Positions 669 through 55,355 of a stretch of DNA of 64,000 bases are shown one piece after another. The translations under genes and the position numbers were made by a program. Source of the stretch: an uncultured Oscillospiraceae bacterium (GTDB lineage: Bacteria; Bacillota; Clostridia; Oscillospirales; Oscillospiraceae); NCBI GenBank assembly GCA_910587255.1, contig CAJUKT010000073.1, positions 5,700 to 69,699 on the forward strand, in the 5' to 3' direction. Each line of letters opens with the position of its first letter. The first letter of the stretch is position 1. The notes below the pieces were generated by a model. The model ran no database searches and was not told where the DNA came from. It saw only the letters and a program-made list of their open reading frames with translations.

Positions 669-3296
669 CTACCTACTTTTGATAGCCGCCTGAGCGGCGG
701 CCAGCCGGGCGATGGGCACACGGAAGGGGGAGCAGGACACATAGTCCAGCCCAATCTTGTGGCAGAACTCCACGCTGGCGGGATCGCCGCCGTGCTCACC
801 GCAGATACCCACATGGATGTGGGGGTTGGTGGAGCGGCCCCAGCGGGCAGCGTTGGAGATGAGACGGCCTACGCCGTGCTGATCCAGCTTGGCGAAGGGA
901 TCGTTCTCGTAAATCTTCTTGTCGTAGTAGGCGTCCAGGAACTTGCCGGCATCGTCCCGGCTGAAGCCGAACACCAGCTGGGTCAGGTCGTTGGAGCCAA
1001 AGGAGAAGAAGTCGGAGATGGGGGCGATATCATCGGCGGTCATGGCGGCCCGGGGAGTCTCAATCATGTTGCCCACCTTATAGGTCATGCTGGAGCCCGC
1101 CTCCTTCAGCAGCTCATCGGCCACGCTGGTGACAATGCTCTTGACGTAGGAAAATTCCTTCAGTTCGCCCACCAGGGGGATCATAATCTCGGGAACAATC
1201 GTCCACTCAGGATGGCGGGCCTGAACGGCCAGGGCGGCCTTGATGACGGCCTTGGTCTGCATCCTGGCGATCTCAGGGAAGGTGACGCTCAGGCGGCAGC
1301 CGCGATGGCCCATCATGGGGTTGAATTCGTGGAGGCTGGCGATGATGGCCTTGATATCCTCCACGGACTTGCCCATCTCCTTGGCCATGGCGGCGATGTC
1401 GGCCTCCTCGGTGGGGACAAACTCGTGCAGGGGGGGGTCCAGGTAGCGGATGGTGACGGGGCAGCCCTCCATGGCCTCATAGATGCCCTCGAAATCGCTC
1501 TGCTGCATGGGCTCCAGCTTGGCCAGGGCCTTCTCGCGCTGCTCCACGGTGTCGGAGCAGATCATCTCCCGGATGGCCTGGATGCGGTCGTCGTTGAAGA
1601 ACATGTGCTCGGTACGGCACAGGCCGATGCCCTCCGCGCCGAATTTCTTGGCCTGAGCGGCGTCGTGGGGGGTGTCGGCATTGGTCCGAACGCCCAGGCG
1701 GCGGTACTTGTCGGCCCAGGCCATGACCCGGGCAAACTCGCCGCCGATGGTGGCGTCCACGGTGGGGATGGCGCCGTCGTAGATCTTGCCGGTGGAGCCG
1801 TCCAGGCTCAGCCAGTCGCCCTCATGGAAGGTCTTGCCCTTGAGCTCAAAGCGCTTATTCTCCTCGTCCATTTTGATCTCGCCGCAGCCGGAGACGCAGC
1901 AGCGGCCCATGCCGCGGGCCACCACGGCGGCGTGGGAGGTCATGCCGCCGCGCACGGTGAGGATGCCCTGGGCGGCCTTCATGCCCTCGATATCCTCGGG
2001 AGAGGTCTCCAGACGGACCAGCACCACCTTCTCGCCACGGGCGGTCCACTCCTTGGCGTCCTCGGCGGAGAAGACGATCTTGCCGCTGGCGGCGCCGGGG
2101 GAGGCGCCCAGGGCGGAGGCCAGCATGGGGGCTTCCTTCAGGGCCTGGCCGTCGAATTGGGGATGGAGCAGGGTGTCGAGGGACCGGGGCTCGATCATGG
2201 CCACGGCCTTCTTCTCGTCGATCATGCCCTCGTCCACCAGGTCGCAGGCGATTTTCAGCGCGGCGGCGGGGGTGCGCTTGCCGTTGCGGGTCTGGAGCAT
2301 GTAGAGCTTGCCGGCCTCCACGGTGAACTCCATGTCCTGCATGTCACGGTAGTGGTCTTCCAGGGTCTTGCAGACGCCCTCGAACTGGGCGAAGGCCTCG
2401 GGGAACTTATCCGCCATCTCACTGATGGGCATGGGGGTGCGCACGCCGGCCACCACGTCCTCGCCCTGGGCGTTGGTCAAAAACTCACCGAACAGCTTGC
2501 GCTCGCCGGTGGCGGGGTTGCGGGTGAAAGCCACGCCGGTGCCGCAGTCATCGCCCATGTTGCCGAAGGCCATGGACTGCACGTTGACGGCGGTGCCCCA
2601 GGAATAGGGGATGTCGTTGTCCCGGCGGTAGACGTTGGCGCGGGGGTTGTCCCAGGAACGGAACACGGCCTTGATGGCGCCCATCAGCTGCTCCTTGGGG
2701 TCGGAGGGGAAGTCGGCGCCGATTTTGGCCTTGTACTCGGCCTTGAACTGGCCGGCCAGCTCCTTCAGGTCGTCGGCGGTGAGCTCCACGTCCTGGGTGA
2801 CGCCCTTCTTCTCCTTCATCTGGTCGATGAGCTGTTCAAAATACTTCTTGCCCACCTCCATAACCACGTCGGAGTACATCTGGATGAAGCGGCGGTAGCA
2901 GTCCCAGGCCCAGCGGGGATTGCCGGACTTGCGGGAGAGAACCTCCACCACGTCCTCGTTCAAGCCCAGGTTGAGGATGGTGTCCATCATGCCGGGCATA
3001 GAGGCCCGCGCACCGGAGCGGACGGAGACCAGCAGGGGATTTTCCTTGTCGCCGAATTTCTTGCCGGTGATTTCCTCCATTTTGACGATATACTCCATGA
3101 TCTGCGCCTGGATGCCGTCATTGATTTTCTGCCCGTCCTCGTAGTACTGGGTGCACGCCTCGGTGGTGATGGTAAAGCCCTGGGGCACGGGCAGGCCGAT
3201 GTTGGTCATCTCGGCCAGATTGGCGCCCTTGCCGCCCAGGAGCTCGCGCATGTTGGCGTTGCCCTCGGAGAACAGGTAGACATATTTGTGAGCCAT
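669..3296 (-). CDS. ppdK: Pyruvate, phosphate dikinase
   Basis: MAHKYVYLFSEGNANMRELLGGKGANLAEM..., with the phosphohistidine motif GGMTSHAAVVARG and a C-terminal PEP-utilising domain. The start was set at ATG 3296 because GGAGG lies 8 nt upstream. Confidence 0.95.
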   Translation of the reverse strand: MAHKYVYLFSEGNANMRELLGGKGANLAEMTNIGLPVPQGFTITTEACTQYYEDGQKINDGIQAQIMEYIVKMEEITGKKFGDKENPLLVSVRSGARASMPGMMDTILNLGLNEDVVEVLSRKSGNPRWAWDCYRRFIQMYSDVVMEVGKKYFEQLIDQMKEKKGVTQDVELTADDLKELAGQFKAEYKAKIGADFPSDPKEQLMGAIKAVFRSWDNPRANVYRRDNDIPYSWGTAVNVQSMAFGNMGDDCGTGVAFTRNPATGERKLFGEFLTNAQGEDVVAGVRTPMPISEMADKFPEAFAQFEGVCKTLEDHYRDMQDMEFTVEAGKLYMLQTRNGKRTPAAALKIACDLVDEGMIDEKKAVAMIEPRSLDTLLHPQFDGQALKEAPMLASALGASPGAASGKIVFSAEDAKEWTARGEKVVLVRLETSPEDIEGMKAAQGILTVRGGMTSHAAVVARGMGRCCVSGCGEIKMDEENKRFELKGKTFHEGDWLSLDGSTGKIYDGAIPTVDATIGGEFARVMAWADKYRRLGVRTNADTPHDAAQAKKFGAEGIGLCRTEHMFFNDDRIQAIREMICSDTVEQREKALAKLEPMQQSDFEGIYEAMEGCPVTIRYLDPPLHEFVPTEEADIAAMAKEMGKSVEDIKAIIASLHEFNPMMGHRGCRLSVTFPEIARMQTKAVIKAALAVQARHPEWTIVPEIMIPLVGELKEFSYVKSIVTSVADELLKEAGSSMTYKVGNMIETPRAAMTADDIAPISDFFSFGSNDLTQLVFGFSRDDAGKFLDAYYDKKIYENDPFAKLDQHGVGRLISNAARWGRSTNPHIHVGICGEHGGDPASVEFCHKIGLDYVSCSPFRVPIARLAAAQAAIKSR

Positions 3297-3362
3297 TGTA
3301 CATTCCTCCAATTTTGATTCGGATGTGCAGGGTAAGCGCGGGGATAGGGTTTCAATGGCAAT

Positions 3363-3391
3363 ATTTTAGCAGAATACACAAGTACGGTCAA
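3363..3391 (-). promoter_or_regulatory. Sigma-A-type promoter for ppdK
   Basis: On the minus strand, TTGACC (3391-3386), a 17-nt spacer and TAAAAT (3368-3363). Confidence 0.5.
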
Positions 3392-3529
3392 GTAAGACTT
3401 GCCTGTCTTTTCAGATTTTCCCAAGGAAACCGCCGCGGTTTTCGCAATGTGATATTTTACAAAAAGCGGGATTGCTATGCGGTAAAACATGTTTTGTACT
3501 ATGAAATTTTGCGGATAAGGAAAAAGCTG

Positions 3530-3557
3530 TTGACAAAAAGCGGCTTTATGCTATGCT
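3530..3557 (+). promoter_or_regulatory. Sigma-A-type promoter for glnA
   Basis: TTGACA (3530-3535), a 16-nt spacer and TGcTATGCT, an extended -10 (3549-3557). Confidence 0.5.
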
Positions 3558-3634
3558 GAAAGCGGGAAATGAAAAATTTGACGTTTTAAGCGGCGCGGGC
3601 CGGGCCCTCCGCCGCAGGAAAGGGGAAACGAGCC

Positions 3635-4966
3635 ATGGGCTATACCAAAGAGGATATTATCCGCATCGTGCGGGAGGAGGACGTGAAGTTTATCCGCATG
3701 CAGTTTACCGACATATTCGGCCAGCTGAAAAACGTGGCGATCACCGCCTCCCAGATTGAGAAGGCGGTGAATAACCAGATCATGCTGGACGGCTCGTCCA
3801 TTGAGGGCTTTGTGCGCATCAACGAGTCCGACCAGTACCTGTACCCGGATCTGAACAGCTTTGTGGTTTTCCCCTGGGAGCCCGAGGAGGCCAAGGTGGC
3901 CCGGCTCATCTGCGATGTGCACAACCCGGACGGTTCCTCCTTTGTGGGCGATCCCCGGGGCGTGCTGGAGCGGGTGCTGGAGCGGGCCAGGGCCATGGGC
4001 TACGACACCTTTAATGTGGGGCCCGAGGCGGAGTTTTTCCTGTTCCAGACCGACGGGGAGGGCAAGCCCACCACCAAGACCAACGACGAGGCGGGCTATT
4101 TTGACCTGGGGCCGCTGGATCACGGCGAGCCCACCCGGCGGCGCATCTGCCTGGCCCTGGAGCAGATGGGGTATGAGATTGAGGCGTCCCACCACGAGGT
4201 GGCGCCCGGCCAGCACGAGATCGACTTCAAGTATGCCCCCGCTCTGGACTGTGCGGACAAGATCATGACCTTCAAGCTGGCGGTGAAGACCATCGCCCAG
4301 CGGGACGGCCTTCACGCCACCTTTATGCCCAAACCCATCTACGGTCTGGCGGGCAACGGAATGCACACCAACATGTCGCTGTTCCGAGACGGGGAGAACG
4401 TGTTTTTCGACGAAAAGGGGGACAAGGGGCTGTCCAGGGAGTGCTATTCCTTCATCGCGGGCATCCTGCGCCATATGAAGGGGATGGCGGCCGTCACCAA
4501 TCCGCTAGTAAATTCCTATAAGCGGCTGGTGCCCGGCTATGAGGCCCCCTGCTACATGGCCTGGTCCGCCTCCAACCGCTCCACCCTCATCCGCATCCCG
4601 GCCAGCCGGGGCCAGGGCACCCGGGTGGAGCTGCGCTGCCCAGACCCCGCCTGCAACCCCTATCTCTCGCTGGCGGTGTGCCTGGCGGCGGGGCTGGACG
4701 GCATCGCCAAGAATATGACCCCGCCCCCGGAGGTCACTGAGAATATCTTTGCCATGACCCCCGCCGCCCGGAGGCGCCGGGGCATCGAGGCCCTGCCCGG
4801 CTCCCTGGAAGAGGCCCTGGCCGCCATGAAGAAGGATAAGCTGGTCATGGCCACCCTGGGCCAGCACGTCACCAGCCAGTATATCGCCGGCAAGGAGGCG
4901 GAGTGGGACGAGTACCGCACCCGGGTGTCGTCCTGGGAGCGGGATAAGTATATCATTAACTACTGA
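3635..4966 (+). CDS. glnA: Glutamine synthetase, type I
   Basis: 443 aa, [34 protein letters not shown]..., with full-length GS beta-grasp and catalytic domains. Confidence 0.95.
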
Positions 4967-5105
4967 AAGAGGAGATCTTTCATCTGCCGGAAGAATTCAC
5001 GATTCGCACGGAGTTCGAATAGCCCGCCGCCTCTGGGCCGTCCGCGCCTCCGGCCTCATACTGCGCCGGCAAAGCGCATACGCTTTCCCATAAGGAGGGG
5101 AGCGT

Positions 5106-17597: not shown

Positions 17598-19433
17598 ATG
17601 GGTCCCGAACAGCTGAATACCCTCACCGACATTCAGGCAAAGCTGCTGTGCGACCAGCTGCGGGGGCAGATCATCTCCAGCGTGTCCCGCACCGGGGGGC
17701 ATCTGGCCTCCAGCCTGGGGGTGGTGGAGGCCACGGTGGCGGTCCACCGGGTATTCAATCTGGAGACAGACCGGCTGGTGTTCGACGTGGGCCACCAGTG
17801 CTATGCCCACAAGATTTTGACCCAGCGGGGGGATCAGATGGGCACCCTGCGCAAGCTGGGGGGGCTGTCCGGATTCCCCAAGCCCCGGGAGCACCGCGCG
17901 GACGCCTTTATCGCCGGACATGCCTCCAACGCGGTGTCGGTGGCCCTGGGGATGGCCCGGGCCAGGACGCTGAGCGGGGAGGATTATTCCGTGCTGGCCA
18001 TGCTGGGGGACGGGGCCATGACCGGCGGGCTCGCCTATGAGGGGCTGTCCGACGCCGGGCAGAGCAGGGAGCAGCTGGTGGTCATCCTCAACGACAACGG
18101 GATGTCCATCACCAAAAATGTGGGCGGGGTGGCGCAGCACCTGGCCCAGCAGCGGCTCAAGCCCCAGTACCTGCAATTCAAAAAGTTCTATCGCAGGGTC
18201 ACGGGCGCCACGGCGGTGGGCCGGGGCCTGTACCGCTTTACCCACAGGGCCAAGCAGGCGGTGAAAAACGCCGTGCTCCATTGCAGTATGTTCGAGGACA
18301 TGGGCTTTACTTACCTGGGGCCGGTGGACGGACATGATGTGAACTACCTCACCCGGCTGCTGCGGTACGCCAAGGAGCTGAACAGCCCGGTGCTGCTCCA
18401 CATCAAGACCATCAAGGGGAAGGGGTATGCCCCGGCGGAGAGGGAGCCGGACCGTTTCCACGGGGTTGGGCCCTTCCGGGTGGAGGACGGCGCGCCCCTG
18501 AGCCCCGGCGGGGAGAGCTTCTCCTGCGTGTTTGGGGACGCCCTGTGCCGGCTGGCCCGGGAGCGGGACGATGTGGCCGCCATCACCGCCGCCATGCCCG
18601 ACGGCACGGGGCTGACGGGCTTTGCCAGGGAGTTTCCCAGCCGCTTTTTTGATGTGGGTATCGCCGAAGGGCACGCGGTTTCCATGGCCGCGGGGATGGC
18701 CAAGCAACGCATGATCCCGGTGGCGGCCATCTACTCCACCTTTTTGCAGCGCGCCTACGATATGCTGATTCATGACGTGGCCATTCAAAACCTCCATGTG
18801 GTTTTCGGCGTGGACCGGGCCGGGCTGTCCGGCGAGGACGGGGAGACCCACCACGGCGTATTCGACATAGCCTACCTGAGCTCCGTGCCCGGAATGAAGA
18901 TCTACTGCCCCGCCAGCTTTGAGGAGCTGCGCGCCATGCTGCGCTACGCGGTGGAGAAGGTGCGGGGCCCGGTGGCGGTGCGCTATCCCAGGGGGGGCGA
19001 GGGGAAGTTCCGCGCCCTGTGCGGTATTGAGGGGGCCAGCGTCATCCGCCCGGGCACGGACGTGACCATCGCCGCCTATGGGACGATGGTGAACGAGGCG
19101 GTGGAGGCCGCCCGGCTTCTGGAGGAAAAGGGGAGGTCCGCCCAGGTGGTGAAGCTCAACAGCATTTCCCCCCTGGACGTGGACACCGTGGCCGCCTGTG
19201 CGAAAAAGACCGGGCGGCTGGTGGTAGCGGAAGAATGCGTGGACGCGGGATGCGTGGGGCGGCGGCTGGCCGCCGAGTTGGCGCTCCGGGGCGTGGCTGG
19301 GCTCAAACTGGCCTTGGTGAACCTGGGGGACCGTTTTGTCCGGCAGGGTACCGTGGCGGAGCTGCGTGCCCTGTGCGGTATTGACGGGGCGTCCATCGCC
19401 CGGCGGGCGGCGGAGGTGATGGACGGTGGCTAA
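17598..19433 (+). CDS. dxs: 1-deoxy-D-xylulose-5-phosphate synthase
   Basis: TGGHLASSLGVVE and the TPP motif GDGAMTGGLAYEG. The start is at ATG 17598, after GGAGAGGAGG. Confidence 0.93.
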   Translation: MGPEQLNTLTDIQAKLLCDQLRGQIISSVSRTGGHLASSLGVVEATVAVHRVFNLETDRLVFDVGHQCYAHKILTQRGDQMGTLRKLGGLSGFPKPREHRADAFIAGHASNAVSVALGMARARTLSGEDYSVLAMLGDGAMTGGLAYEGLSDAGQSREQLVVILNDNGMSITKNVGGVAQHLAQQRLKPQYLQFKKFYRRVTGATAVGRGLYRFTHRAKQAVKNAVLHCSMFEDMGFTYLGPVDGHDVNYLTRLLRYAKELNSPVLLHIKTIKGKGYAPAEREPDRFHGVGPFRVEDGAPLSPGGESFSCVFGDALCRLARERDDVAAITAAMPDGTGLTGFAREFPSRFFDVGIAEGHAVSMAAGMAKQRMIPVAAIYSTFLQRAYDMLIHDVAIQNLHVVFGVDRAGLSGEDGETHHGVFDIAYLSSVPGMKIYCPASFEELRAMLRYAVEKVRGPVAVRYPRGGEGKFRALCGIEGASVIRPGTDVTIAAYGTMVNEAVEAARLLEEKGRSAQVVKLNSISPLDVDTVAACAKKTGRLVVAEECVDAGCVGRRLAAELALRGVAGLKLALVNLGDRFVRQGTVAELRALCGIDGASIARRAAEVMDGG

Positions 19434-24094: not shown

Positions 24095-24362
24095 ATCAAC
24101 GTAAGGATGAGGACCAGTAGCCAACAGGTTTTCTGCCCAGAGAGCCCCCGTTTTGGTGGAAGGGGGACAGAAACGGTTGGCGAATACCCCTCGGAGCGGC
24201 CGCCTGAACGGGAGTTTCCCCAGTAGGGCCGGACGGGTGCGCCCGGTACAGCGCCGGGGTCCTGCTGGGGACTCCCTGAGGCCGTCTCTGCGAGGGGACG
24301 GCAAAACAGAGGTGGTACCGCGAGCTTTCGCCCTCTGTCCCAAAGGGACAGGGGGTGATTTT
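24095..24362 (+). promoter_or_regulatory. T-box leader (tRNA-Tyr specifier UAC) with terminator
   Basis: Stem I elements are GATGAG, AGTA, AGAGAG and the distal GGTGGAAG. The specifier context is GAA-TAC-C near 24183-24189. The T-box sequence is AGAGGTGGTACCGCGAG (24307-24323). The terminator is CCCTCTGTCCC-aaa-GGGACAGGGGG followed by TGATTTTGATT (24331-24365). Confidence 0.9.
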
Positions 24363-43480: not shown

Positions 43481-44041
43481 TTACAGCTTTTTCACATACC
43501 GCAGGTCGTGGCAGGGCGGACTGTTGGGAAAGGGGATGTCGGCGCTGGTGCCGTCCCAGGCGAAGCCGTGGGCGGCGTAGAACCGCCGGGCGCCTTCGTT
43601 TTCCTGAAGGACAAACACGAAAGCGCTTGGAAAACCCTCCAGCTTCATCCGGCGGCAGGCCTCCTCAAACAACAGCCCGCCGTAGCCGTGCCCGCGCTGG
43701 GCCGGGTGGGTGTAGAAGGAGGCGATCTCTCCCCAGTCGGCGTAGGACTCGTTGTCGAATTTACAGATGTCGCCGGGGTTGTAGTTCACCGTCCGGGCCT
43801 TGCAGTAGTTCAGGCAGGACACCGGCTCGTCTCCCCGGTATAGCAAAAGGCCGCGCACGCCGCTTTGGGTCTCGTAATTCCGGCGGAAGATCTCCACCCA
43901 CCGGTCATCGGTGATCTCCCGGGCCATATAGTCGGCGGGCACCGCGTTTACATAGGTATCCCGCCAGCCCAGGGCGTGTATGAGGGACATGGCTCTGAAA
44001 TGCTCCTCGGTGCAGGCATCCACAAAGCGCAATTCTTCCAT
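43481..44041 (-). CDS. GNAT-family N-acetyltransferase
   Basis: MEELRFVDACTEEHFRAMSLIHALGWRDTY...HPAQRGHGYGGLLFEEACRRM (motif A). AGGAGGA lies 5 nt before ATG 44041. Confidence 0.85.
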   Translation of the reverse strand: MEELRFVDACTEEHFRAMSLIHALGWRDTYVNAVPADYMAREITDDRWVEIFRRNYETQSGVRGLLLYRGDEPVSCLNYCKARTVNYNPGDICKFDNESYADWGEIASFYTHPAQRGHGYGGLLFEEACRRMKLEGFPSAFVFVLQENEGARRFYAAHGFAWDGTSADIPFPNSPPCHDLRYVKKL

Positions 44042-44093
44042 GGCAATCCTCCTAAATGAGCGGCCCCGCCCCGGCCGGGCAGGGCCGTGAATC

Positions 44094-44310
44094 GGCGGCA
44101 GTTCCCCAAGCCCGCCCTCACTCTCGGTCAACGCATTGGTAGTACGGTGTGAATGCGGGCCGAAGCCCTGTCACAATACGGTTGTGCGCGGTCTGGGCAT
44201 ACGGTGTGATGTGAGGATTCGAACCCCTGCGCCAGCCCATAGGCGCGCCATGACCGGCTCATTCTCAGCCGGGAGAGATACGTTCGCCCCAAGAGCTACC
44301 TGCTGCCGCC
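44094..44310 (-). ncRNA. Candidate structured RNA with a tRNA-like T-arm (unclassified)
   Basis: The closing helix is GGCGGCAG (44310-44303) / CTGCCGCC (44101-44094). Inside are hairpins at 44272-44254 and 44246-44229, the T-arm mimic GGGG-TTCGAAT-CCTC at 44227-44213, and a UUCG hairpin at 44168-44157. There is no credible ORF. Confidence 0.5.
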
Positions 44311-44314
44311 TTGG

Positions 44315-44348
44315 TTTCGGTTTCTTTCAAGAAAAAGAAACCGAAAAA
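44315..44348 (-). terminator. AU-rich hairpin after the DIP1984-family gene
   Basis: TTTCGGTTTCTTT-caaga-AAAGAAACCGAAA. There is no separate U-run after the stem on the minus strand. Confidence 0.35.
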
Positions 44349-44413
44349 GAGCATTGATTCGCTGACGGAACGGATGCCGGCCCACAAGTGGGCGTCACGG
44401 CAACGCAGGTGGT

Positions 44414-44866
44414 TTAAATGAGCTCCGTTGTCCAGTTGGCCGCCTGGATGGAGTTGTCCAGCAGGCGCAGCTCCTTGGCCAGGTTGTCCGCCTGCTTCTG
44501 CACGTCCTTCACGCTGACGGAGCTGAGCACCTTGATCTCCGTGCGGGTGGCGCGGCGGGCCAGCTGGCTGGCGTTGTAGGCCAGATCCCGGTAGATGCTG
44601 AGCTTCAGCTTCAGCGCGTCCCGCCTGGCCAGCAGGGCGGTGAGGCTTTCGCCGCCCACCTGGGTTTGGCAGTTGGTCAGGTTGATCCGGGTGATGAGCG
44701 TCTCCAGGCTGGCGGCGCAGCCGTCCAGCTCCGCCAGCAGCCCGGCGGGGTCCTCGGCGGGCTGCTCCCCCTCCTGCACGATGGCGTTGCTGTTCAGCCG
44801 CTGCTGGAGCTGCTGGATGCGGCGGTTCAGATCCGCCCGCTCCTGTAATGCTTCCGCCAATTTCAT
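44414..44866 (-). CDS. DIP1984-family (septicolysin-like) protein
   Basis: 150 aa, MKLAEALQERADLNRRIQQLQQRL... The coiled-coil-like N-terminus is typical of that family (from memory). AAGGAGGG lies upstream, 12 nt after the preceding stop. Confidence 0.55.
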   Translation of the reverse strand: MKLAEALQERADLNRRIQQLQQRLNSNAIVQEGEQPAEDPAGLLAELDGCAASLETLITRINLTNCQTQVGGESLTALLARRDALKLKLSIYRDLAYNASQLARRATRTEIKVLSSVSVKDVQKQADNLAKELRLLDNSIQAANWTTELI

Positions 44867-46199: not shown

Positions 46200-46934
46200 T
46201 CAATCGTCCCGAACGGCCCAATAGAGGCGTCCAATGGAGCGGGTCATGCCCAGGGACCGTTGAAGGGCCAGGGACGGGTCGTTTCCGTCGAACACCTGCC
46301 CATAGGGGACGTGCCCACGGGACAGCTCCAACCCGATCATGTAGGACTGGAGCAGGGTGGCCAGCCCCCGGCGGCGGTAGGGGGGCAGCACCTCCAAAAG
46401 CCCTACGGAGCCCTCTGCGTGCCGGCCGATAAAGGCCATAAGAGTGCCGCCGTCAAAGGCGCCGTACAGCTCGCCGCGTGCGATGAGCCAGGACAGGTAC
46501 TCCTGGTCGGTGAGGGTGTAGTTAGCCAGCACGGTGGGCAGGTGGGATTGGTCCAGCTGCCGTATGTCCGCCGCCGCGTCCGGCAGGGGCGGAGGTGTGG
46601 TGCGAAGCCAGCCCAGCTGCCAGCAGGGATTCAGCCGGGTGAAGCCAAAGCGCTTTTCCAGCTCGTCCCGGTAGAGCGCCTCGTGGACGGTGATGAAGGT
46701 GGGCTTGGGCGGGATCAGGGCCAGCAGGGCTTGAGCGGTTTCCAGATCGTCTGCGAACATGGTGAAGCCCAGATCCTGCCCGTCCTTTTCGTAGTTATGA
46801 AAGGCGGCCAGCGCGCCTCGGGGCGTGGCGGCGAGGAGCCTGCCCTCCCCCCGGCGGACGGCCTCCGTCAGGTCCAGGTAGAGCACCGGGTCTCGGTTCA
46901 GCGCCTCCTGGCAGATGCTCAGATCAATGCTCAC
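46200..46934 (-). CDS. GNAT-family acetyltransferase (two-lobed, 244 aa)
   Basis: C-terminal LLEVLPPYRRRGLATLLQSYMI motif A. GTG start with GGAGGAGA 9 nt upstream. It overlaps the upstream gene end by 11 nt. Confidence 0.7.
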   Translation of the reverse strand: MSIDLSICQEALNRDPVLYLDLTEAVRRGEGRLLAATPRGALAAFHNYEKDGQDLGFTMFADDLETAQALLALIPPKPTFITVHEALYRDELEKRFGFTRLNPCWQLGWLRTTPPPLPDAAADIRQLDQSHLPTVLANYTLTDQEYLSWLIARGELYGAFDGGTLMAFIGRHAEGSVGLLEVLPPYRRRGLATLLQSYMIGLELSRGHVPYGQVFDGNDPSLALQRSLGMTRSIGRLYWAVRDD

Positions 46935-55179: not shown

Positions 55180-55355
55180 GAATGTCTTCAGGGCGGGGTG
55201 AAATTCCCCACTGGCGGTATAGTCCGCGACCCGCGAAAGCGGTTGACCCGGTGAAACTCCGGGACCAACGGTAAAAGTCCGGATGGAAGAAGACGCGTGA
55301 CCCCTCTTGAGGTAGTGTCGCGCCTGGAAGACAGTCTTTTCAGGCGTTTCATACT
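55180..55355 (+). promoter_or_regulatory. FMN riboswitch (RFN element) with expression platform
   Basis: CAGGGCGGGGTGAAATTCCCCACTGGCGGTATAGTCCGCGACCCGCGAAAGCGG...CCGGTGAAACTCCGGGACCAACGGTAAAAGTCCGGATGGAAGAAG matches the conserved RFN core. It is followed by the hairpin CGCCTG...CAGGCG and a T-rich tract. Confidence 0.9.

Follow-up and report, generated by a model that had tools for sequence, protein, structure and literature searches.

The bacterial RNAs closest to the element reported here fall into several described groups. In Y-RNA systems, YrlA/Yrn1 accompanies Ro60 (Rsr) in rsr-yrlBA-rtcBA operons: a non-coding RNA stands beside its protein partner, is clamped end to end by a closing helix and carries a T-arm-like hairpin. 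The raiA motif, OLE, ROOL and GOLLD have complex pseudoknotted folds, many invariant junction nucleotides and a wide spread; they were identified by covariation, and their biochemical function is not known. Two further points of comparison are tRNAs, together with the tRNA-like domain of tmRNA and viral tRNA-like structures, and riboswitch or attenuator leaders such as the T-box. Here we analyse a structured RNA encoded in 64,000 nucleotides of DNA (the window) from an uncultured Oscillospiraceae bacterium (GenBank assembly GCA_910587255.1, contig CAJUKT010000073.1, positions 5,700 to 69,699 of the forward strand). Its core occupies 44092-44313 on the minus strand, between a DIP1984-family (DUF6847) gene of 150 amino acids (44414-44866) and a GNAT acetyltransferase gene (43481-44041; Pfam PF00583), both on the same strand; the gap between them holds no credible open reading frame (ORF). 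A first reading of the DNA, made from its letters and ORFs without database searches (hereafter the sequence-only reading), had seen in it a tRNA-like RNA in the leader of the GNAT gene. The best-supported statement is now that it represents a new structured-RNA family functionally coupled to DIP1984/DUF6847 genes. More fully, it is probably a widespread, previously uncatalogued RNA of about 210-230 nucleotides that is the co-transcribed partner and near-obligate 3' neighbour of these genes.

Folded as a single sequence, the window copy scores only mildly better than its shuffles (z=-2.3), so the case rests on comparison with relatives. Eighty GNAT loci were gathered with the GNAT protein from one-genome-per-species contigs. 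BLAST among them revealed a conserved block upstream of GNAT in about 29 of the 80, bounded near 44312 and near 44090 and followed by a variable hairpin and the Shine-Dalgarno sequence. Twenty-six close copies make up our alignment A2, from which the covariance model R1 was built; R1 finds the RNA upstream of GNAT in about 30 of the 80 species and matches the window copy with 224.8 bits, a score that is partly circular because this copy is one of the 26 source sequences. In A2, the closing helix of the sequence-only reading, four hairpins and two long-range helices, P2 and P2b, have 95.5% of their cells paired, and 11 pairs are doubly changed. In an alignment of 94 diverse homologues to R1, pairing holds in 93.8% of cells, both sides have changed in 38 of 41 pairs and 979 cells are compensatory, which is the outcome of the covariation check on relatives that the sequence-only reading had itself proposed; none of 500 shuffles did as well, and slid controls reached 37-52% pairing. 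Fitting this larger alignment to R1 biases it towards the structure; even so, the effect is so large, and the pair types seen per position so many, that the fold, as a comparative model, is beyond doubt. It comprises P1, P2, P2b, three hairpins and a pseudoknot. Covariation on 26 and on 94 homologues thus bears out a densely structured non-coding RNA, and every helix named in the sequence-only reading was found on the minus strand where that reading had placed it.

P1, the closing helix, pairs GGCGGCAG (44303-44310) with the strand at 44094-44101, written CTGCCGCC or CUGCCGCC. All of its eight pairs, in two helix segments, show compensatory changes among the 94 sequences. An alternative register proposed by RNAalifold (alignment columns 7-9/230-232 plus GGCGG/CUGCC) was superseded, since the original register covaries in the broad set. 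A conserved GGUAG junction follows (44296-44300), whose last G opens P2; it is invariant in the 26 close homologues, and GGUA is kept in samples from five phyla that were reached through the protein. A possible contact with CUACC would consist of three constant base pairs (GGU:ACC), invariant on both sides and showing no covariation. The 5' strand of P2, GCUCUUGG (44289-44296), meets CCGAGAGU (44120-44127) about 170 nucleotides downstream. Three of its positions covary in the 26 close homologues (UA, CG and UG; GC, AU and GU pairs), and every pair is doubly changed somewhere in the set of 94. P2b, preceded by a conserved GGCGA, joins AACGU (44280-44284) to GCGUU (44130-44134), with 98.5% of cells paired and double changes in five of five pairs in the larger set. 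GGTAGCTCTTGG does not form a D-arm, as these two long-range pairings, which emerged from A2 with RNAalifold, show.

Three hairpins stand inside this stack. P3 (44254-44272; CCGGCU-GAGAAUG-AGCCGG, with a seven-nucleotide loop) is near-invariant in the close clade, where only three G-U changes and one unpaired cell occur; in distant members the stem covaries and the loop differs. P4 (44229-44246; GCGCC/GGCGC) shows double changes in six of six pairs in the set of 94, and its loop forms the pseudoknot, GGGC at 44235-44238 pairing with GCCC at 44195-44198, 12 nucleotides 3' of the T-arm-like hairpin. As an all-against-all scan of column covariation for further pseudoknots returned mostly purine/pyrimidine noise, this pairing was tested sequence by sequence. 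A 3' tetramer other than GCCC occurs in 24 sequences, and 20 of them have its exact complement in their own P4 loop, tetramers GUCC, GCUC, ACCC and UCCC being matched by loops GGAC, GAGC, GGGU and GGGA; over 1000 trials, cross-pairing between sequences yielded 1.07 such matches on average and never more than 6. P5, the T-arm-like hairpin (44213-44227; GGGG-UUCGAAU-CCUC), has a covarying stem and a conserved GUUCRANYC loop and is missing from the Paracoccus, Picosynechococcus and Moraxellaceae copies. The sequence-only reading had described a closing helix around four hairpins: P1, P3, P4 and P5 do covary strongly, whereas the fourth hairpin, capped by UUCG (44157-44168; GGGC-TTCG-GCCC), is a variable insertion, deleted in 4 of 26 close relatives, compensated in others and with its columns empty in about 60% of the 94 sequences. 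Between the pseudoknot and P2b, soil lineages have candidate helices of the ACAGU/ACUGU type, which are not general. The G-rich strand GAGGGCGGGCUUGGGGAA (44102-44119) contains a GAGGGYGGGnnnGGGGA box that nearly all members keep, including most copies found by protein search.

Presence and absence of the RNA follow the upstream gene. By tblastn, a DIP1984 gene is present in 29 of the 80 GNAT loci, and all but one of them (28 of 29) have the RNA; in the exception (locus L018) DIP1984 is reduced to a remnant of 51 amino acids and the RNA is gone. Among the 51 loci devoid of a DIP1984 gene, none has an intact RNA and 50 have no RNA at all, the exception (L027) retaining a truncated 3' part (3856-3957, 39.7 bits) that looks like a decaying remnant. 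In L018 (1121-2037), the first 51 DIP1984 codons run directly into the GNAT region, which suggests that a deletion fused the two genes. N-terminally extended GNAT proteins occur in several loci (L005, L007, L048 and L063, with matches of about 800 nucleotides, and the 262-amino-acid protein P0001).

The association extends far beyond this clade. Metagenome contigs were scanned with the pattern GGTAG...GGTTCRANNCC...AGGGYGGGNNNGGGG, which returned at least 120 loci from soil, peat, freshwater and gut, with GC contents of 0.33-0.71, forming 88 clusters at 88% identity; R1 matches 78 of the first 80 at E<1e-4. All-against-all clustering of flanking ORFs produced one dominant family of about 150 amino acids, on the same strand and ending just before the RNA, in 100 of 120 loci among the matches listed; tblastn likewise places a DIP1984 homologue in 112 of 120 among the matches listed, and the DIP1984-less loci that were checked (L136, L141, L168) end at a contig edge. 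Among the matches listed, 103 loci have a same-strand ORF of at least 90 amino acids that terminates upstream of the RNA, and in 33 of these its stop codon reaches into the 5' strand of P1. The stop codon most often lies 7-8 nucleotides before GGUAG, and 6-10 nucleotides before it in most other lineages. In the window about 100 nucleotides separate the RNA from the DIP1984 stop codon, a lineage-specific spacer absent in most other lineages; its minimum-free-energy fold includes an A+T-rich 10-bp hairpin (CGGUUUCUUU/AAGAAACCG, 44314-44347) that has a U-run on neither strand and is thus not terminator-like. Other neighbours are incoherent: among the matches listed, 104 downstream neighbours outside the clade fall into 90 Pfam families, none present in more than two loci, 59 of the 104 lie on the opposite strand, and 69 upstream neighbours fall into 46 families.

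The converse approach, starting from the protein, gave the same picture. In five phyla, DIP1984 genes reached through the protein have the RNA, and it lies directly after the plasmid-borne DIP1984 genes of Streptomyces, Paracoccus, Mycobacterium and Picosynechococcus in all cases. Seven of eight diverse contigs match R1 right at the DIP1984 stop codon, where gene callers leave a gap of about 240-400 nucleotides; in the eighth (Alkanindiges) an alignment reveals the RNA, with P5 missing. Copies in Acinetobacter baumannii give weak R1 matches at the expected place (16 bits, E=8e-6); the divergent Moraxellaceae members rest on weak matches and an alignment. Features conserved across the protein-first alignment are GGUA, GCGAGCACA, the pseudoknot, ACNACC and GAGGGYGGGnnnGGGGA. 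The DIP1984-RNA pair is therefore spread over several phyla and tied to no particular downstream gene, and the RNA lies on the strand of DIP1984 immediately after its stop codon, often overlapping it. We define the family by a P1-P2-P2b stack around P3 and P4 (with P5 in some lineages), the P4-loop pseudoknot, and the boxes GGUA, GCGAGCACA and GAGGGYGGGnnnGGGGA, the whole sharing the strand of a DUF6847 gene and lying directly 3' to it. The window copy conforms, having all the helices and the pseudoknot at the coordinates given above and a DUF6847 gene ending at 44414 on its strand.

Some loci depart from the simple one-gene, one-RNA arrangement. In L059, two divergent RNA copies follow one DIP1984 gene in tandem (3542-3754, 111 bits; 3759-3986, 224 bits). 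In the phage-like contig L216 (IMG/VR, 178 kb), a single DIP1984 gene is accompanied, within 3001-5000, by copies at 3984-4190 and 4785-4994, which lie 0.5 and 1.3 kb from the gene and are set apart from it by small ORFs, two short and Cys-rich and one of 182 amino acids rich in Cys and His. The link to phages is weak in general, with five phage records and five full-length IMG/VR loci. No enrichment of tRNA genes was seen within 2 kb (4 of 120 loci among the matches listed). Aminoacyl-tRNA synthetase or other translation genes adjoin the module in L120, L212, L209, L213, L097/L160/L176 and L214; they comprise GlyQ 38 nucleotides downstream, SerRS 68 nucleotides downstream, HisRS/AspRS, RF1/PrmC, IleRS upstream and a MiaB-like enzyme.

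Comparison with catalogued RNAs leaves the element outside known families; the sequence-only reading had likewise missed in it the signatures of TPP, FMN, T-box, cobalamin, SRP, 6S, tmRNA and RNase P RNAs. At gathering score over the window, Rfam 15 returns only an FMN riboswitch and a T-box, both away from the element, the sole match of the T-box model RF00230 lying at 24095-24338 on the plus strand. A cmscan of 4227 families against the window element and 20 diverse homologous loci gave no match on the element, and at E<=10 on 43950-44480 only noise appeared. The models of raiA, OLE, ROOL, GOLLD and other orphan non-coding RNAs in Rfam do not match, which disposes of membership in raiA, another of the early suggestions. 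The present RNA has a near-obligate coding neighbour and starts at its stop codon, whereas raiA RNA is not known to have such a fixed placement beside a gene. A 2024 survey of 50 genomes does not list the RNA, and no paper found in the open-access literature ties DIP1984, DUF6847, septicolysin or 3KDQ to an RNA.

The protein partner matches Pfam PF20935 (E=1e-52) and NCBIfam NF038048 (E=1.6e-54) and is a homologue of PDB entry 3kdq, deposited as an uncharacterised protein. Its predicted structure is a four-helix bundle (predicted local distance difference test score 83), for which Foldseek returned only 3kdq and generic helical bundles, nothing informative. The family is large: at least 7,802 DUF6847 clusters were found at E<=1e-10 among 8,000 candidates scored, and DIP1984 matches 360 plasmid records, 341 of them from Acinetobacter. 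The name 'septicolysin' comes from older annotation; studies of A. baumannii plasmids repeat it and report the gene as a putative thiol-activated cytolysin virulence factor (PMC5559437). The four-helix-bundle fold of 3kdq and the current family names give this label no support, and it appears to be a misnomer.

How might the two partners work together? The RNA would form the 3' portion of the DIP1984 transcript, with its end at the GC hairpin 44087-44061, and would act with the DIP1984 protein as a ribonucleoprotein, as a cis element on the DIP1984 mRNA, or both. In many genomes the terminating ribosome would have to melt P1, because the stop codon lies in its 5' strand. That geometry, found in 33 of 103 loci and echoed in most others by a stop codon 6-10 nucleotides before GGUAG, is also what one would expect of a purely cis-acting element of the 3' untranslated region with no function as a free RNA: with P1 folded across the stop codon, such an element would govern termination, the release of ribosomes or the decay of the mRNA, and DIP1984 might bind it for autoregulation. 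The constant shared strand and the terminator after the RNA agree with such an element. Nevertheless, we consider it rather unlikely, given the spacer of about 100 nucleotides that separates stop codon from P1 in the window and its clade, the L216 copies placed behind other ORFs, the tandem pair of L059, and a pseudoknotted fold of 210 nucleotides with many invariant junction bases, which exceeds known stability elements in complexity. The L216 and L059 arrangements point to an RNA able to act in free form and lead us to favour a trans-acting product.

The genes that recur beside the pair give a hint of its field of action. In A. baumannii (L207, 2165-8765 of NZ_CP098797.1), the order is rtcR (divergent), RNase Z, RtcB, a 216-amino-acid protein with no Pfam match, DIP1984, a gap of 260 nucleotides that holds a weak RNA match, and RtcA. 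This record is labelled a plasmid yet has housekeeping genes, namely pheA and a bifunctional prephenate dehydrogenase/3-phosphoshikimate 1-carboxyvinyltransferase gene. At the corresponding position, the rtc operon of Salmonella encodes Ro60 and the tRNA-like YrlA/YrlB RNAs. RtcB is also directly upstream of DIP1984 in L106, L195 and L211, and is the sole recurrent extra neighbour, in about 4 of about 80 independent contexts, which by our own estimate is far above chance for a roughly single-copy gene. L195 (522-7030) opens with 16 tRNA genes in about 2.2 kb (522-2685), followed by small ORFs, RtcB, DIP1984, the RNA and two HipA-like kinase genes. Because the pair recurs beside RtcB and sits in the rtcR operon of A. 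baumannii, its most likely field would be RNA damage, repair or quality control, and we favour a ribonucleoprotein involved in RNA damage or repair. A more specific proposal, which we put forward tentatively as on balance unlikely, is that DIP1984 protein and RNA form a hitherto unrecognised ribonucleoprotein across phyla, acting in RtcB-type repair or quality control as a functional analogue of Ro60-Y RNA built from unrelated parts. In a bolder variant, the P1-clamped RNA would itself be cut out and joined, or circularised, by RtcB. Small plasmids of clinical A. baumannii also carry the proposed ribonucleoprotein.

Would the RNA then be a Y RNA in the strict sense, that is, a tRNA mimic of the Y-RNA/YrlA kind serving as decoy or scaffold to recruit tRNA enzymes or RNA-repair and decay factors by a tRNA-like elbow, with DIP1984 in the place of Ro60? 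The A. baumannii copy does occupy the Ro/Y-RNA niche inside an rtcR-controlled RtcB/RtcA operon, three other lineages have the pair beside RtcB, and P5 has the full GUUCRANYC loop of seven nucleotides on a stem of 4-5 bp, preceded by the variable-arm-like P4, much as in tRNAs and tRNA-like structures. Within the L100 copy the tRNA model of Rfam also reaches 31.8 bits, and ARAGORN reports a tRNA within that of L162. However, the acceptor-like stems of these two copies, the only ones seen, are weak and not general. No Y_RNA or YrlA model matches at E<=10 on 43950-44480 or at gathering score on 20 homologous loci, and TROVE is absent among the five neighbouring genes of the window and among the 25 commonest families listed per neighbour set, so the early suggestion of a YrlA/Y-RNA member fails as family membership and survives as an echo, in the operon niche of A. 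baumannii. The partner differs as well, a helical bundle of 150 amino acids versus the TROVE ring, and about 95% of copies lie away from rtc genes.

The tRNA likeness itself appears peripheral, a matter of the T-arm-like hairpin, because this covarying module is missing in Paracoccus, Picosynechococcus and Moraxellaceae, including the Acinetobacter operon copy. The mimicry of a class II tRNA proposed from the sequence appears superficial: the acceptor-like strand pairs about 200 nucleotides downstream as P1, the D-arm-like segment is the 5' strand of P2, no D-arm is present, and U33 is missing from the P3 loop, which is not anticodon-like. We therefore hold a strict tRNA mimic to be distinctly unlikely. 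Within the ribonucleoprotein that we favour, P5 would be an accessory handle for tRNA-recognising factors, outside the functional core.

A further alternative is that the pair works as a toxin-antitoxin-like or plasmid-addiction module, one partner, RNA or DIP1984 protein, neutralising the other. The module is compact and two-part, its contexts are highly variable, it occurs in the 341 Acinetobacter plasmid records and often adjoins PIN, HipA or BrnA toxin-antitoxin genes. Yet no PADLOC defence model matches, the protein shows no nuclease-like fold, the RNA is one complex fold downstream of the gene and not the repeat array of a type III antitoxin, and 28 species of the Oscillospiraceae clade keep the pair at one conserved chromosomal place. 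Such a module seems quite improbable.

The role first proposed for the element, that of a 5' cis-regulatory leader of GNAT (a riboswitch, or a protein- or tRNA-binding attenuator acting through the hairpin 44087-44061), is now highly improbable. Within this clade, one strand carries in direct succession the RNA, a terminator-like hairpin and the GNAT Shine-Dalgarno sequence (AGGAGG, 44053-44048; ATG at 44041), an arrangement reminiscent of the T-box and other leaders, and the G-rich box could pair over 7 bp with the 5' arm of the hairpin in the window. Unlike such leaders, however, the RNA domain is tied to the upstream gene (28 of 29 loci with DIP1984, nearly none of the 51 without) and the genes downstream are unrelated elsewhere, often on the opposite strand. 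The presence/absence pattern and the neighbour surveys refute a GNAT leader as the general function. An anti-terminator role of the G-rich box was dropped because the box is also conserved where no terminator comes after. The 11-bp GC hairpin (44061-44087), taken earlier for an expression platform, behaves instead as a putative intrinsic terminator of the DIP1984-RNA unit: its sequence is variable and the hairpin always present in relatives, where a U-run follows (for example in L021, L013, L026 and L029) before the GNAT Shine-Dalgarno sequence, and terminators also come after the RNA in unrelated Firmicutes loci. GNAT is a downstream neighbour in this clade only, a bystander outside the element, perhaps reached here by read-through of a weak terminator.

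That the element is a decayed tRNA gene or att-site remnant, for which a T-arm look-alike and a partial tRNA-Sec match (13.9 bits, E=8.4, covering the GCGCC hairpin and the T-arm look-alike as variable and T arms) could be cited, has next to no probability and is refuted by covariation: across phyla, the helices around the tRNA-like part and on either side of it covary, no homologue resolves into a complete tRNA, and no integrase context was found. The sequence-only reading was right that this is no tRNA gene, as ARAGORN calls neither tRNA nor tmRNA over the window, and Rfam has no tmRNA match at the element or elsewhere in it.

Several points weigh against a new RNA family working with DIP1984. 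The pattern used on the metagenomes demanded GGTAG, the T-loop and the G-rich box, so the conservation of these three motifs is overstated in that set. We infer co-transcription and a protein-RNA complex from position only. The partner is predicted to be a plain four-helix bundle with no recognisable RNA-binding module, matching 3kdq only. RtcB stands in only about 5% of contexts, and the repair role may be lineage-specific. As to newness, no description of the RNA was found in Rfam 15 or the open-access literature, and it may have been described elsewhere.

If confirmed, this large pseudoknotted class, with thousands of likely members (there are at least 7,800 DUF6847 protein clusters, and nearly every sampled gene has the RNA), would join the few widespread bacterial non-coding RNAs lacking a known function. 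It would also offer a first functional handle on the DIP1984/'septicolysin' family, which has had a crystal structure since 2009 and no known role, and which reports on A. baumannii plasmids routinely mislabel as a cytolysin virulence factor. The RtcB neighbourhood makes the hypothesis of an RNA-repair ribonucleoprotein, analogous to Ro-Y RNA, testable. Annotation pipelines are also seen to leave an 'empty' gap of about 240-400 nucleotides after every DUF6847 gene.

The five genes that we surveyed around the element in the window are GNAT, DUF6847, a gene with a weak, sub-threshold DUF2229 match, PNP_UDP_1 and a second GNAT. This second GNAT/FR47-like gene (46200-46934, minus strand) lies 2 kb upstream on the same strand, and before it come a 451-amino-acid protein, which bears the weak, sub-threshold match to DUF2229 (CoA-enzyme-activase), and a neighbour of 988 amino acids. 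R1 has one other match in the window, at 18958-19016 on the plus strand (15.5 bits, E=0.0009), which covers only a GC-rich hairpin resembling P1 and is almost certainly spurious. The T-box leader at 24095-24338 (108.9 bits) and the FMN riboswitch at 55180-55298 (115.5 bits), both on the plus strand, are unrelated to the element.

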